A stretch of DNA of 64,000 nucleotides, from the NCBI GenBank assembly GCA_963693365.1, contig CAVNZM010000002.1, positions 11,960,328 to 12,024,327 of the forward strand. Direction: 5' to 3'. A program made the position numbers and the translations under genes. Numbering within the stretch: the stretch's first letter is position 1; the number at the start of each line of letters is the position of its first letter. The notes under the pieces were generated by a model. The model had not been told where the DNA came from. It worked only from the letters and a program-made list of their open reading frames with translations, and did not search any database. This document shows, piece by piece, positions 37,853 through 63,469 of this stretch. The DNA comes from Amoebidium appalachense. Its lineage: Eukaryota; Protista; Ichthyosporea.

Positions 37853-40800
37853 ATGGATTTACCCTCCTTTGCCCTCCTCCTGCACCAGCTATCCAATCCA
37901 GCCAGTGACATACGTCAGGGAGCAGAGGCCCAGTTTGAGGCTCTGAAACAGAGCCCAGATACCCTCGCTCAGTTGATGGTTTCGACCATTGCTCAGTCTG
38001 ATGATGCTCTGGTAAATTCCATCATTGCCCCCCCCCCCCCCCCCCCCGTGCCTCTTCATTTCCAGCAGGACGAGGTTTCTGGGGGGGGGGGGGGGGGGGG
38101 GGGGGGGTTGTATGTGAAGTGAAATGGAGTGGGCGGGTGAGGGGGAAGAGGGATGAGAGAGAAGGAAGGTCAGGTGCGTTCAGGGGGGAAGGGGAGGGGG
38201 GAGGGGGGGGAGAGGGGGAGGAGGGGGGGTTAATAAGGGATGGGGTGGGGCCGGGGGCGGGCGGGCGGGCGGCGGGGGCCGCAGGGGGGGGGGGGGGGGG
38301 GGGGAGGAGGGTAAGACAGAGCGATAGGGAGGGTGGGTGGGGAGGGGGCAGGGGGGGGGGGGGGGAGGGAGGCAAGGAGGGAGGGGGGGAGGGGGGAGAA
38401 AGGGAGGGGGGGAAAGTGAAATGGAGGGAGGAAGGGAGGACCGGAGGGAGGGAGGGACAGAGAGAGGCGGGGGGGTGGGTGCAGCGGGGGGAAGGGGGGG
38501 AGAAGATAGGGGGAGGGGGTCTTGTTGTTGAACCGACGAGCCAGTGCAGAGTGAGTGTGGGTGTGCGTGTGAGTGTGTCCATGTGAGTGTGTGCGCGTGT
38601 GTTTTTCTCTTTCTTTTCTTTTCTTTTTCCTTCCTTCTCTCTTTTTTTGTGGAGGAAAGGGGGGGGGGGGGGGGGGGGGGGGGGGGGGGGGGGGGGGGGG
38701 CGCTGCTGTTCTCGGATACACAGACACCTTATGTGGTGCTCACAACACACCCGTTGTAGGTGTATTCCTATTGTGTTCATGCCCACGTACAGGCAACCCA
38801 TCAACACAACTCTTCACTGACAATATCATTTCCCCCCTATTACAGGCACGGGAAACGGCTGCTGTTTTGTTTCGTAGAATCTTTTTCCACGTTTTGGTTT
38901 CGGAGGAGCTTCTTTGGGCTTCAGTCAACCAGGTTTGCAACCTCTCCTCCCCCCCCCCCCCTCCTCCCCCCTCCCCTCCCCCTCCTCCCCCCCCCCCCCC
39001 GCGCCTCCCTCCCTCCCCCCCCCCCCCCCCCCCCCCCCTTGGGCCCTCCCTGAGGATGGGCTCTGCTTATGACGCATACTGTGCGCATGGCTGATGTTGC
39101 ATACTTGAATGTTTGCCTTTGCATGTGTCCTTCGTGTATGCGTACTTCGTACCATGTTCCGCATTCAAACCCCACCAGTCTTCTTTCAGAGGTGTCCTTT
39201 CAGGACAGACCACTGTGAGGAGAGCGCTTTACTTCCATGCAACCGGGCATGGTTGCTCTGTGTCGTGCATCTGTAAGCACATACGCATTTTCCGCTGCAC
39301 TGCATTAGTTTGCACACACATATTCACCGTTTTGCTCACCTTGCTTGCATAAGCAACCCTGCTCGTCTTTGATCAAGACGGGTTGACCCTCCCAAGTTCA
39401 GTTGATGCTGCTGTCTGAGTTGGAGAGTCGTATATACGCGGGCTAAGAGGTCGAAACTCAGACCCAATTGATGACTTGGGCCCTCCCTGAGGATGGGCTC
39501 TGCTTATGACGCATACTGTGCGCATGGCTGATGTTGCATACTTGAATGTTTGCCTTTGCATGTGTCCTTCGTGTATGCGTACTTCGTACCGTGTTCCGGA
39601 TTCAAACCCCCCGTCGGGTACTGTGGATGACGTGGGCCCCCCCTGAGGATGGGCTCTGCTTATTATGCATACTCTTTATGTATGGCTTGCATTCTGCATC
39701 GTGTTATCCGTTTGTTCTTGTGTACTTCGTACTTTTTGACGCATTCAAAACCCCCCCCCCCCCCCCCCCTTTTTTCCTTTTTTTTTTTTTTTTTTTTTTT
39801 TTTTTTCCCCCTTCTCCTCCCCCCCCCCCCCCCCCCCATTCCCCTCCTACCTTCTTTTTCCCCCCCTTTCCCCCCCCCCCCCCCCCCCCTGGCCAAACCC
39901 TGTATACACTCTTCTCATCAGCAGGTCTCTAACCCACTCTGCAGAACGTTTTACGCATTTCTCCCCTCGGAGAACTTGGTCGTTGGTGCGTTTTTGTCTG
40001 ACATCTAACGACTCTGCAGGGTCCCCTGAGACTACTGACACTCTAACATTCCCTCCCCTCTCTTACTTCCCCCCCCCCCCCCTCCCCCTTTCCCTCCTCC
40101 TTCCCCTCCCATTTTCTCTGCACACCCAACAGGTCTTAACCAGATCTGCACATCGTTAGTCACAATCTTCTCACATATATGAGAGAATGATCGTATTGGT
40201 ACGATTTGTCTAATATCTGACGATTCTGCAGCATCCATAAGACCCCCCTCCCCCCCTCCCCTCCCCTCCCCCCCCCCCCCCCCCCCCCACCTTCTCTCTC
40301 TCTCTCTCTCCCTCTCTCCCCTCTCTCTCTCCCTCTCTCTCTCCTCTCTCTCTCTCTCTCTCTCTCTCTCTCTCTCTCTCTCTCTCTCTCTCTCTCTCTC
40401 TCTCTCTCTCTCTCTCTCTCTCTCTCTCTCTCTCTCTCTTTCTTTTTCCTCCTTTTTTTTTTTTTTTTTTTTTTTTTTTTTTTGGCGCCTGTTGTTTTGC
40501 TTGTCATTTGTTGTTCTGGTTGATTACCTGTAATCTTCGCTTATTTATGTGTGTGTGTGTGTGTGTGTGTGTGTGTATGTTGTGCGGGGTTGCACATACC
40601 GGTGTCTACTTTTCTTCTTACTGTTTTTCTCTCCACACACTTCATCTGTCCACTTCTGCATACCCCCTTTCATAGCTATAGACACACTTCACACATTGCG
40701 TTACGCGCACGCATGCACACACCGCTCTGTTGGCGACAGCTCCCTTGGAACCCATGCGGCATGTTACCCGCTGGCGTAACATAACTCGGACTATCGGTTT

Positions 40801-61800: not shown

Positions 61801-63469
61801 AGTCCGCAATGGTCTTTCGTACTCTTGCACTGCCCCCTTCCTCCCCCCCCCCCCCCCCCCTCCCCCTGCCCTCGCCATACTTTCTGGTTTGTGTTTTTGT
61901 ATTTCCAACTGTCATGCCTTGGCTTGCGTGCTTTCACCCTTTAAAGCATTCCCCCCCCCCCCAAACCGCTTTACTTCCATGCAACCGGGCATGGTTGCTC
62001 TGTGTCGTGCATCTGTAAGCACATACGCATTTTCTGCTGCACTGCATTAGTTTGCACACACATATTCACCGTTTTGCTCACCTTGCTTGCATAAGCAACC
62101 CTGCTCGTCTTTGATCAAGACGGGTTGACCCTCCCAAGTTCAGTTGGTGCTGCTGTCTGAGTTGGAGAGTCGTATATACGCGGGCTAAGGGGTCGAAACT
62201 CAGACGCAATTGATGACTTGGGCCCTCCCTGAGGATGGGCTCTGCTTATGACGCATACTGTGCGCATGGCTGATGTTGCATACTTGAATGTTTGCCTGTG
62301 CATGTGTCCTTCGTGTATGCGTACTTCGTACCTTGTTCCGCATTCAAACCCCCCCTCCTCCCCCGGGGATAGGGTAGGAATAAGCCCAATCTCGACTACG
62401 TCCCAACCCTCTCTGCCATTCCCTTGCTGCACTCGATTACTTCTCTCCTGGAATCACCCATATGAAAAAAAAGACTCTGCCAGCTACCTCCGTTACTAGT
62501 TCAGATCCCTCGTTCTGTTCATTCACTTCTGCTTTGCCTTGCTGCCCTCTTGGTGCATATATCCCCCCTTCCCCCCCCCCCCCCCCTCTCCCCCCCCCCC
62601 CCCCCCCCCCAAACAAATTACCACACACTCACCTCCCCCCTTTCTCCCCCATAGCTTTCCGTTCGAAGACGATAAAGTTCCGCCCTAGTAAGCGTGTTAC
62701 TACCCTGCGGCGTGGGTCAAATCTCATATTTTCCCCTCTGATTGCGAATTCTGCGGCCTTCGGGACTTAATTCTTTTCAGCTGGTGTAGTATGTTAGCCA
62801 GGGAAGTATCGACTTAGGTATCGACGGGGGAGCTTCCTAGAAGCCCCGTCTCCTGAGTTCCTATCTATATTTTTCTTGCTTCTGCTTACTGCTGCAACTT
62901 TAACCCCCGGCCTTTCCCACTGCCCTTGCCTGCATAAGCAACCCTGCTCGTCTCTGATCAAGACGGGTGACCTACTCATGTTCAAGTGAAACAGTATCTG
63001 AGTTGGGTTTCGTTAACGAGGGGAATAGGTCGAAACTCGGGTACTGTGGATGACGTGGGCCCCCCCTGAGGATGGGCTCTGCTTATTATGCATACTCTTT
63101 ATGTATGGCTTGCATTCTGCATCGTGTTATCCGTTTGTTCTTGTGTACTTCGTACTTTTTGACGCATTCAAAAACCCCCCTTTCTCCCCCCCTTACCCCC
63201 CCCCCCCCCCTCCCCCCCCCCCCCCCCCCCCCCAAAAAAAAAACCCCCACTCCTCCAACCTCCCCTCTTCTCACCCCCCTCCTCCCCCCACCCCAATATC
63301 GAGTCAGGCTGCTCATTAGTGTTACCGGAATGCCGTTTGTGCTAACATGACCTCATGACTTTCATCCAATCACCAGAGGCCCTTCCCCGGCTCGAAGCAA
63401 TGATTGGCCAACCGGATGCTCGGGATGATGAAATAGTCTTCAGCACAGAAAACGCAATTTCGGCCATAA
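37853..63469 (+). CDS. IPO5: Importin-5 / karyopherin beta-3 (Kap121/Pse1 family), runs beyond the window end
   Basis: Exons 37853-38011, 38846-38932, 43333-43438, 44005(or 44011)-44213, 45120-45221, 46304-46432, 46987-47154, 47548-47662, 48772-48905, 49302-49463, 49998-50156, 51036-51296, 51775-51907, 52890-52957, 54762-54915, 55537-55602, 56398-56510, 56914-57037, 57714-57793, 58438-58530, 59559-59637, 60743-60804, 61429-61507, 63377-63469, all phase-compatible. Family motifs: [110 protein letters not shown]. Confidence 0.95.
39039..39750 (+). mobile_element. Head-to-tail array of poly-C-anchored retroposon copies (B 39039-39169, B 39225-39606, A 39614-39750)
   Basis: Three copies, each ending ...attcaaa followed by a C-run, with different 5' truncation points. 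Confidence 0.85.
40720..42019 (+). mobile_element. Head-to-tail array of poly-C-anchored retroposon copies (long A ~40720-41382, diverged 41403-41496, A 41536-42019)
   Basis: ~480-bp near-identical copies separated by C-runs. The longest copy carries an ORF end at 40721-40897 (…[37 protein letters not shown]). Confidence 0.85.
42686..43330. repeat. Large compound (CA)n microsatellite with internal duplication, abutting the IPO5 exon 3 acceptor
   Basis: Representative of dozens of intronic (CA)n/(GT)n, (CT)n/(GA)n and C/G runs throughout the window. Confidence 0.95.
45791..45871 (+). mobile_element. Poly-C-anchored retroposon, subfamily A, 81-bp 3' remnant
   Basis: Near-identical to the last ~80 nt of subfamily A, embedded within a C-run on both sides. 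Confidence 0.85.
53044..53280 (+). mobile_element. Poly-C-anchored retroposon, diverged subfamily C
   Basis: tgcataagtaactctgctcgtctccgatcaagacggg...gtcgaaac...ctgaggatgggctctgctta...acgcatcata+C-run. Confidence 0.8.
54916..55536 (+). other. U12-type (minor spliceosome) AT-AC intron of IPO5
   Basis: 5' end ATATCCTG, branch site CCCTTGAC at 55517-55524, 3' end ...gtgcAC. Splicing here restores conserved FYMHE-G-VRQAA, and no GT donor exists at the required position. Confidence 0.9.
55392..55512. repeat. ~28-30-bp imperfect minisatellite, 4 copies
   Basis: Unit approximately cacattccatgtttctattggtgca, immediately upstream of the U12 branch site. Confidence 0.75.
61967..63174 (+). mobile_element. 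Poly-C-anchored retroposon copies (B 61967-62348, A 62651-63174)
   Basis: Near-identical to 39225-39606 and 40860-41382 respectively. Both begin after a C-run and end in one. Confidence 0.85.

Follow-up and report, generated by a model that had tools for sequence, protein, structure and literature searches.

A C-run-associated, non-coding repeat family in Amoebidium: a probable non-autonomous Penelope-like element with a predicted scrambled hammerhead

The window analyzed here, 64,000 nt from Amoebidium, an ichthyosporean and non-animal holozoan, contains an importin-5 gene and 12 dispersed copies of a poly-C-associated repeat family (about 12 copies per 64 kb), ten of them lying in sense direction in introns of that gene (Table 1). 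Self-BLAST and direct reading recovered the same 12 plus-strand copies as an initial annotation of this DNA, whose intronic placement and ichthyosporean affinity also hold. Where that annotation distinguished at least three subfamilies, five sequence types can be told apart, A, B, and the single-copy C, D, and E; the near-identity it reported for copies 22 kb apart amounts to 99.6% over 524 bp for A and 98.0% over 391 bp for B. The family is abundant, protein-less, and sits in intronic C-runs, with a mixed array inside the importin-5 intron at 38933-43332. Many host introns begin with GT, a few bases, and then a C-run; intronic C-runs fit the part of a safe landing pad, and are a candidate for it. 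No minus-strand copy was found among the 12 in the window, but this uniform orientation (p about 0.17 for seven independent sites) is mostly explained by the supply of targets, since C-runs of at least 8 outnumber G-runs of that length by 141 to 41.

Table 1. Features of the window, in order of position.
Feature	Position	Strand	Remarks
Probable old eroded copy after C-run	3585..3657	+	weak: nhmmer E 0.019-0.26; z 3.0-4.8
Similar weak eroded candidates	ends 4842, 7393, 22424, 45717, 52071, 56862		weak: nhmmer E 0.019-0.26; z 3.0-4.8
B-type copy	10128..10316	+	internal deletion removing cut-site and GAAA blocks
Diverged E-type copy	28493..28628	+	no C-run at either end; 82.5% over 63 bp; nhmmer E 1e-22 with a model built with this very copy
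Host importin-5 gene	37853..63480	+	23 exon pieces match P0001; splice ends read
B-type 3' fragment, 131 bp, upstream pseudo-LTR	39039..39169	+	98.5% to 39476-39610; C24 at left
Element-borne C-tract, 3' end to next head	39170..39176	+	C7 in most copies; here A at 39174
Complete B unit, non-coding, 430 bp	39177..39606	+	with C7, 437-bp period
Predicted scrambled hammerhead in B	39385..39497	+	GACC 39385, cut after U39421, GAAA 39453, CUGAGGA 39487
A-type 3' fragment, 137 bp, inside C-tail of B copy	39614..39750	+	100% to 41246-41382
Longest A copy, non-coding, without unit head	40600..41382	+	5' end at or before 40600, possibly 40484; no Pfam match
Conserved RNA core of A	41140..41305	+	strand b 41151-53, hairpin, GACC 41178-81, predicted cut after U41213
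A core, continued	41214..41281	+	stem I 41214-16 with 41272-74; GGUC-GAAA 41237-44; CUGAGGA 41275-81
D-type 3' fragment, 97 bp, between C-runs	41403..41499	+	71-74% to A and C ends
A copy, 484 bp	41536..42019	+	C14 left, C23 right; 100% to 40898-41381
A fragment, 81-82 bp	45791..45872	+	23-bp flank repeats 45768-45790 and 45873-45895
C-type copy, 237 bp	53044..53280	+	84% to A; both core words kept, stems I and III broken
B copy, 382 bp, 5'-truncated	61967..62348	+	predicted hammerhead layout
16-bp TSD, left copy	62635..62650	+	begins C6
A copy, 524 bp	62651..63174	+	predicted hammerhead layout; 99.6% to 40859-41382
16-bp TSD, right copy	63175..63190	+

Copies share a fixed 3' end reading CAAA+(C)n, in which the A count varies from 3 to 5. 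As first described, this end is joined to a C-run (at least 4) in 11 of the 12 copies, the exception being the diverged copy at 28493-28628; such runs start at just 554 of the 64,000 positions. The 5' ends are variable and usually follow a C-run (at least 5, within 6 nt, in nine of the 12), again as initially proposed; the remaining three lie at the B|B join, at a T-run (40484, a candidate boundary), and at the 28493 copy. There is no poly(A) tail on any copy in the window. The initial statement that clear target-site duplications (TSDs) are lacking was wrong. A 16-bp repeat brackets the 62651 copy; it starts with the C6 of the target itself, and its 15-mer is found in the window solely at 62635 and 63175. 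The 45791 copy likewise lies between two copies of a 23-bp repeat, C16-T-C6. Fixed 3' ends, 5' truncation, and TSDs of variable length together characterize Penelope-like elements (PLEs), and the ends and the C6-initial TSD support the target-primed retrotransposition into C-runs that had been suggested. A 30-40-bp PLE tail or inverted 5' copy, a feature optional in PLEs, was not seen in the 12 copies. In three DNA runs, summed contig depth, which is not taken as copy number, climbs 5- to 45-fold between 40627-53 and 41275-301; run X11 has 69 contigs in which a C-run is joined to position 41269.

B is a head-to-tail unit of about 437 bp with pseudo-LTR anatomy. The join of 3' end, C7, and head was found in 66 contigs of run X1 and 36 of run X11, the same numbers reading position 39174 as C, and its recurrence in dozens of contigs of two runs makes the C-tract part of the element, as the initial annotation had supposed along with the partial tandems of pseudo-LTR type. 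Such tandems with a recurring end-to-head join are a PLE trait. Contig depth across the B|B join does not drop to single copy; three listed pieces, from X1, X11, and X5 (the RNA status of X5 being a guess), bridge it with 31 or more letters per side, and one X1 contig runs from an A-type end through C6 into a related head. Short-read contigs from three DNA runs contain head-to-tail joints, and as a class the arrays are not an assembly artefact; this support covers the class, no contig spanning the 39039 array itself. Two copies had been correctly recognized but given the wrong start: that placed at 39225 begins at 39177, directly after the C-tract of the upstream copy, and that placed near 40720 extends to at least 40600, where it is still multi-copy (summed contig depth 10,000-130,000) and where a 552-nt contig covering 40600-41104 continues for about 47 nt further.

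In the predicted fold, A and B hold all of the hammerhead core bases, in block order S-G-C. Descriptors whose thresholds were chosen post hoc, after the motif had been seen, gave five matches in 128 kb (both strands), all in A or B copies, all S-G-C, and all in sense; the S-G-C descriptor was reached in 16-19 of 20,000 shuffles, and in 0-1 of 20,000 with the upstream helices added. Core bases, block order, and stems I and III are found in all five A and B copies spanning the region, but not in the C copy, which fails the descriptors at both stems; the B copy at 39177 fails a stricter version. Stem III has 12-13 bp in A and 8 bp in B, stem I has 3 bp (GGG:CCC) in A vs. 4 bp (GGAG:CUCC) in B, the GACC helix of A has 6-7 bp, and GAAA lies 34 nt ahead of CUGAGGA in A, B, C, and E. 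A stem II between blocks C and G does not get beyond two pairs and a G-G mismatch; the upstream strand offers 4-7 pairs for it. Covariation across four sequences comprises three pairs with two-sided change, equalled in 24 of 500 shuffles. In free energy the scaffold is 7.6-9.4 kcal/mol less favourable than the pseudoknot-free optimum, and ordinary folding of the core is unexceptional (z -0.9 to -2.2 on either strand; -0.5 for the whole B unit). No canonical type I, II, or III hammerhead was found on either strand, the six Rfam matches over 38900-42200 were all far under gathering scores, and scanning metagenome and viral contigs for motifs yielded four chance matches, in unrelated prokaryote and RNA-phage sequence. 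The predicted cut does not set insertion ends: no 5' end in the window coincides with it, and among the contigs listed there is no pile-up of ends there.

The family is probably a non-autonomous PLE in the Naiad/Chlamys clade that depends for its copying on an autonomous partner yet to be found. Chlamys elements insert into (C)n or (CA)n with the coding strand ending in C, as do 11 of the 12 ends here, and the hammerhead half-core in the 3' region is a minority trait of Naiads. The initial annotation tied the family to Chlamys, soundly as regards (C)n targeting, but missed the hammerhead core that links it at least equally to Naiads. Its statement that Chlamys targets (C)n is confirmed, and a non-autonomous Chlamys also yields short intronic insertions; its further statement that Chlamys occurs in ichthyosporeans has no counterpart in the text and supplement of the defining paper (PMC8557442). 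Clade membership is unproven because no parent encoding a reverse transcriptase (RT) was found: the 64-kb window holds neither such a parent nor a PLE protein remnant, and in three PLE protein searches, each with its best 120-150 matches listed and most of these without organism name, no Amoebidium-labelled PLE appeared among the best 120 of 257 and the best 120 of 363, which is not proof of absence. Nor did any of ten unnamed matches, when looked up, carry an Amoebidium label. Scanning genome contigs for RT motifs gave PLE seeds; RT-motif scans of viral contigs gave chance matches or none.

Assuming such a partner, its GIY-YIG endonuclease would nick the G-rich strand of a genomic C-run. Because units are joined head to tail via an element-borne C6-7, a transcript across the join would hold the tract internally; the tract could pair with the freed G-rich 3' end, where the partner RT would start. 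(A Poseidon PLE begins reverse transcription inside its RNA.) Priming at the tract would produce the fixed CAAA+(C)n end, in which slippage would give 3 to 5 A residues. Judging from copy anatomy, early RT stops would give truncated copies of 81-524 bp, copying beyond one unit on multimeric or circular RNA would give the 1.3-unit insertion at 39039-39606, and a staggered second nick would give the 16-bp duplication. As the anatomy shows, each insertion leaves a new C-run, so that other subfamilies, inserting later, stack into mixed arrays such as the observed B, B, A, A, D, A. The predicted core may fold as an S-G-C hammerhead, its stem II completed by the upstream strand, with a cut at 168 nt (A) or 185 nt (B) upstream of the fixed end that would trim tandem transcripts to unit length; for fold, cut, and trimming, the chances seem about even. 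A fuller scenario, toward which we incline rather less, is that a Penelope-like lineage with an N-terminal endonuclease colonized this single-celled relative of animals, in which it reached tens of thousands of copies, and joined the (C)n targeting of algal Chlamys with the RNA motif of animal Naiads. The motif would be an active hammerhead whose split stem II is a wiring not among the six published block orders, and it would make from tandem transcripts unit-length or circular templates whose read-around gives the pseudo-LTR.

Alternatively, an endonuclease-less PLE (Athena or Coprina style), or any RT, might employ the RNA C-tract for priming at spontaneous breaks in G-runs, without a targeting nuclease. 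In such PLEs, C-rich stretches of the RNA anneal to G-rich 3' ends and hammerheads are present, the element-borne C7 suits such priming, and long G-runs are break-prone; but they are generally restricted to chromosome ends, whereas this family is dispersed, and both the clean 16-bp TSD, which suggests staggered nicks, and the RNA layout, which by eye matches that of the Naiads shown, with their endonuclease, make this explanation improbable. About as unlikely is a SINE-like element moved by a LINE that targets simple repeats, the tandems arising by re-insertion into a previous tail and the conserved words being RNA polymerase III boxes. A full-length L1-like LINE at 30.8-35.2 kb, whose RT is unrelated to that of PLEs, has its end right at (CA)n, showing that LINEs, too, abut simple repeats here; the mixed-subfamily array shows independent insertions; and a 12-mer A-box match (one mismatch) lies ahead of a B-box-like GGTCGAAAC (one mismatch). 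These boxes, however, lie 240 nt into a unit that has T4-5 terminators inside it, and they pair with one another as stem III; the B|B join is common to dozens of contigs rather than private to this locus; the family shares no DNA with the window LINE, including its 3' end; and neither a poly(A) or LINE-like tail nor a tRNA, 5S, or 7SL head was found. ARAGORN and Rfam detected no tRNA, and together with the box positions this leaves a tRNA-derived SINE without support.

The long A subfamily may be the 3' UTR of an autonomous element, with B alone non-autonomous: A is at least 783 bp long and multi-copy to the edge of the covered stretch, its head is absent from the window, and autonomous Naiad/Chlamys elements are heavily 5'-truncated in the published account (PMC8557442). 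We consider this a minority possibility, as 40484-41382 has no ORF or PLE protein remnant and the RT ORFs checked stop within a few hundred bases of the apparent element end; it is compatible with the mechanism proposed above and alters only which copy is the parent. That the element makes the C-runs, as tails rather than pre-existing targets, is very improbable and largely refuted, despite the C6-7 it carries and five further C-runs preceded by weak end-like sequence. Complex sequence precedes 215 C-runs; of these, 10 come after known copies and 6 more are second runs inside those flanks; the other 199 include five with z of at least 3 vs. two of 250 controls. The TSD shows that its target already had C6, and the C-runs that open many host introns likewise speak against this reading.

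If the preferred reading is right, an Amoebidium member would fill a gap beside animals in the distribution of Naiad/Chlamys elements and combine traits so far divided between the two. The 437-bp unit, with its internal C7 priming tract, defined target, and predicted cut, would lend itself as a compact model for testing how pseudo-LTRs arise and what part hammerheads play in PLEs, both still open. Cleavage by the split-stem layout would break the rule that hammerhead blocks do not tolerate interruption; without cleavage, the family is a Chlamys-like non-autonomous element in a new host.

In the published account, Naiad/Chlamys elements are defined by partial tandems and multicopy head-to-tail non-autonomous copies, are recorded from animals, green algae, spike mosses, and a slime mould, and are described without canonical hammerheads (Craig 2021; PMC8557442). 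[quoted passage not shown] Closest in target are the Chlamydomonas reinhardtii elements Chlamys-N4_cRei and MRC1, likewise (C)n-targeting and without coding capacity (PMC8557442; bioRxiv 10.1101/2022.05.23.493040). Non-autonomous Chlamys there shares pseudo-LTRs, head-to-tail copies, and short, 5'-truncated insertions (median 128 bp), which at (C)n are wholly intronic, and four of the five consensus ends shown have AA+C5-6 on the coding strand, like the end here. The differences are the host (green alga or slime mould vs. a holozoan), the lack of a hammerhead core, by eye, in the five Chlamydomonas ends shown, and the lack of an identified parent for the Amoebidium family.

Naiads flagged HHR_core or HHR_half_core (17 of 54; Craig 2021, Files S1 and S5) resemble the present family in placing a GAAA word ahead of CUGANGA in their 3' region. 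By-eye reading of the 21 published Naiad 3' ends that were shown, picked mostly because already flagged, gives the same split S-G-C layout in six (two from Octopus, one each from Euprymna and Beroe, and the records that precede Naiad_Plae and Naiad-4_Chem in print), where stems I and III form and the strand before GAA pairs upstream, and a complete C-S-G hammerhead in four more. The likeness noted is one of RNA layout. Naiad-like 3' regions drawn from public contigs lack the motif (0 of 27 and 0 of 22) and are not matched by the family profile. Naiads as described are confined to animals, mostly prefer (TA)n, and are coding elements of 3.3-4.8 kb (PMC8557442).

Type-SGC hammerheads (HRIMA-1 and variants; Eckert 2023; PMC10085705) have the same block order and all core bases, and natural variants likewise read GGUCGAAAC and CUGAGGA-U-G. 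In those examples, stem II is completed by the strand that follows CUGANGA, whereas in Amoebidium that direct pairing would be G-C, G.U, and a G-G mismatch, with a better partner upstream, and stem I is followed by a linker of about 20 nt, against about 3 in theirs. Theirs are environmental, almost all from metatranscriptomes; the Amoebidium ones sit in a eukaryotic retroelement. Animal non-LTR retrozymes (Cervera 2020; PMC7229834; bioRxiv 10.64898/2026.07.22.740005) are also non-coding tandem units, of 150-450 bp, with a hammerhead core, and derive from or are moved by PLEs, as is proposed here. They are described as metazoan, with a type I hammerhead per tandem unit, which the Amoebidium unit does not have, and are reported to be depleted from introns; the Amoebidium family is intronic, C-run-targeted, and mostly 5'-truncated.

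Self-BLAST and direct reading recovered, at the same coordinates, all 12 plus-strand copies of the poly-C-associated family reported in the initial annotation (see table; copies are named by their starts). Where at least three subfamilies had been proposed, five sequence types, A to E, can be told apart, and the reported near-identity of copies 22 kb apart amounts to 99.6% over 524 bp for A and 98.0% over 391 bp for B (self-BLAST). The fixed 3' end adjoins, as claimed, a run of at least four C's in 11/12 copies; such runs begin at just 554 of the 64,000 window positions, and 9/12 copies also have a C-run no more than 6 nt from their 5' end. 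The claim that there is no clear target-site duplication has to be withdrawn: copy 62651 has one, a 16-bp flank duplication opening with C6, whose 15-mer has no further occurrence in the window. Copy 45791 is flanked by a 23-bp repeat, C16-T-C6.

Family copies and other features of the window
Feature	Position	Strand	Description	Basis
Type A copies	39614, 40600 or earlier, 41536, 45791, 62651	+		self-BLAST, direct reading
Type B copies	10128, 39039, 39177, 61967	+		self-BLAST, direct reading
Types C, D and E		+	one copy each	self-BLAST, direct reading
Importin-5 match	37853-63480		23 pieces	
LINE	30837-35230	-	full-length, two ORFs, RVT_1 domain; single ORF2 frameshift near 32113-32183; stop codon almost abuts (CA)n, without 3' UTR or poly(A)	
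Hairpin segments	39915-40045 and 40122-40250	+	pair of related segments within the array that fold strongly, each flanked by C-runs; 82/138 columns identical; on + the fold z is -4.2 and -4.6, on - it is weaker; nothing matched in Rfam; candidate identities are a MITE, an H/ACA-like RNA or a piece of the long A unit	
Tandem duplication	11149-11440		147-bp period, 97.9% identity	self-BLAST
Frame with PAS domain match	8874-9098	+	weak (E 5e-5); the frame is probably exonic, belonging to the gene near copy 10128	

Ten of the 12 copies lie, in sense direction, at C-runs within introns of an importin-5 gene, identified by its match to a protein source-labelled Amoebidium parasiticum with which an 87-aa window exon is 100% identical. 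Many of these introns have a long C-run a few bases after their initial GT, and they often end with (CA)n or C-runs ahead of AG; their C-runs are mostly on the sense strand. Across the window, runs of 8 or more number 141 for C vs 41 for G, and this difference in target supply largely accounts for the all-plus strand bias of the copies. Most C-runs are not old element tails: outside the known tails, a z of 3 or more is reached by 5/199, vs 2/250 controls. According to its genome paper (PMC11244446), A. appalachense has a genome of 202 Mb, about half of it TE, and the word “Penelope” is absent from the paper's text and supplement text. Should the window be representative, its density of 12 copies in 64 kb would extrapolate to ~38,000 family fragments genome-wide.

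The A stretch is present in 20 of 24 listed public sequencing runs. Three DNA runs contributed 12,043, 12,139 and 7,440 contigs aligned over 40600-41400, with summed depth rising from 82,000, 344,000 and 25,000 at 40627-53 to 1.07, 1.80 and 1.12 million at 41275-301 (same order), the gradient expected of 5' truncation. Runs X2 and X1 may come from the source organism; X11 bears another organism code. A C-run is joined to position 41269 in 69 X11 contigs, at several contig joints the A 3' end leads back into another truncated copy, and a single X1 contig passes from an A-type end through C6 into a related head. A corresponding B|B join, between the fragment 39039-39169 and the complete unit 39177-39606, is spanned by three listed pieces with at least 31 letters per side (X1 record 1, X11 record 9, and X5 record 26, from a run whose RNA status is a guess), and depth over 39095-39345 stays above single copy there. 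Contigs departing into C-runs at 39173 number 20 and 80, and position 39174 is C in 66 X1 and 36 X11 contigs, so that the join reads CAAA-C7-head. The recurrence of such end-C-tract-head joins indicates that the C-tract belongs to the element and that one B unit measures about 437 bp, a common variant being about 15 bp longer; 39039-39606 comprises 1.3 units, shaped like a pseudo-LTR plus body.

Neither A nor B has a notable ORF or Pfam match (150 frames scanned, from 197 listed plus one extra). Searching the window with a profile built from 69 PLE (Penelope-like element) proteins, and by tblastn with 120, gave no convincing PLE protein remnant, and protein searches seeded with 46 PLE loci, from eukaryotic contigs within public prokaryote genomes, gave no Amoebidium-labelled PLE protein among the matches listed; the parent is therefore missing rather than excluded. 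Apart from L039 and L052, the sequences of these loci (L010-L055) look like eukaryotic PLE RT, and they include full-length elements with N-terminal GIY-YIG and tandem arrays of 3.5-4.0-kb period (L012-L015, L020-L023, L027-L028); L025 terminates in (CA)n. Chlamys-like PLE proteins of environmental origin form a large group (P0011-P0079, P0139), 38-59% identical to L025 over RT, and its one labelled member is from Rhodelphis marinus, a host absent from the 2021 list. The inferred route to the observed arrangement is that a partner GIY-YIG nuclease would nick the G strand, priming would occur through C:G annealing at the internal tract, and read-through would generate the pseudo-LTRs; the predicted RNA core may be self-cleaving.

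In A, B, C and E, GAAA is placed 34 nt upstream of CUGAGGA, and none of the four has a canonical hammerhead fold. An any-order hammerhead descriptor (stem I 3+, II 2+, III 4+; thresholds picked after the motif was seen) gave five matches over both window strands, all in A or B, all sense and all with the core bases in S-G-C order; 16-19 of 20,000 shuffles matched on the sense strand, and dropping the stem II requirement adds two unrelated background matches. Stem III is 12-13 pairs long in A and 8-9 pairs long in B. For stem I, the A copies have GGG:CCC and the B copies GGAG:CUCC; direct stem II pairing runs G-C, G.U, then G-G. The strand before GAA pairs with upstream GACC (4-7 bp), and GGG after the core with upstream CCC. 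Stems I and III are broken in the C copy, and B39177 is one pair short of a stricter descriptor. The predicted structure pairs 94.9% of cells in four sequences, from which it was itself derived, vs 35-44% in slid controls, and 24/500 shuffles performed equally well. Its scaffold lies 7.6-9.4 kcal/mol above the best knot-free fold; this cost is offset by a pair of crossing helices, each worth 6-10 kcal/mol when computed as an isolated duplex.

Whether the predicted core actively cleaves is close to an even bet. No insertion has an end at the predicted cut (after U41213 in A, U39421 in B); for a Poseidon PLE, insertion ends are likewise reported not to map to the cut, and cleavage is protein-assisted and dispensable for insertion in vitro. 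In PMC10085705, validated type-SGC ribozymes have a block order identical to that of the A/B core, with natural variants reading GGUCGAAAC and CUGAGGA-U-G. A plain type-SGC ribozyme was rejected as the identity of this core, as was a canonical retrozyme as that of the family.

The closest likenesses are to two PLE groups, Naiad and Chlamys, described in PMC8557442, where Craig 2021 labels the same kind of spacing in Naiads HHR_half_core. Judged by eye, the Amoebidium family carries the Naiad RNA layout. Among 21 Naiad 3' ends from File S5, read by eye and picked non-randomly by motif search or flag, six have S-G-C order, stems I and III and upstream pairing of the strand that precedes GAA: the two Octopus families, Euprymna, Beroe, and the records that come ahead of Naiad_Plae and Naiad-4_Chem (on the assumption that File S5 keeps the order of table S1). 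Another four, three nematode and one spider (Naiad-2_Nbra, Naiad-3_Nbra, Naiad_Hpol, Naiad_Smim), can be read as full C-S-G hammerheads, all three stems included, a type previously published from two metagenomic sequences; the displayed text of the remaining 11 has nothing of the kind. The motif is absent from Naiad-like 3' regions of public contigs (0/27, then 0/22, several regions being incomplete). Chlamys ends from Chlamydomonas have no hammerhead core by eye in 5/5, and in 4/5 they have the AA+C5-6 terminus of the Amoebidium family. Neither link, to the Naiad RNA layout or to the Chlamys ends, was found in the portion of the published literature covered. The family is probably a non-autonomous element of the Naiad/Chlamys clade, and it works like the non-autonomous Chlamys elements described for Chlamydomonas, which make short, intronic, (C)n-targeted insertions.
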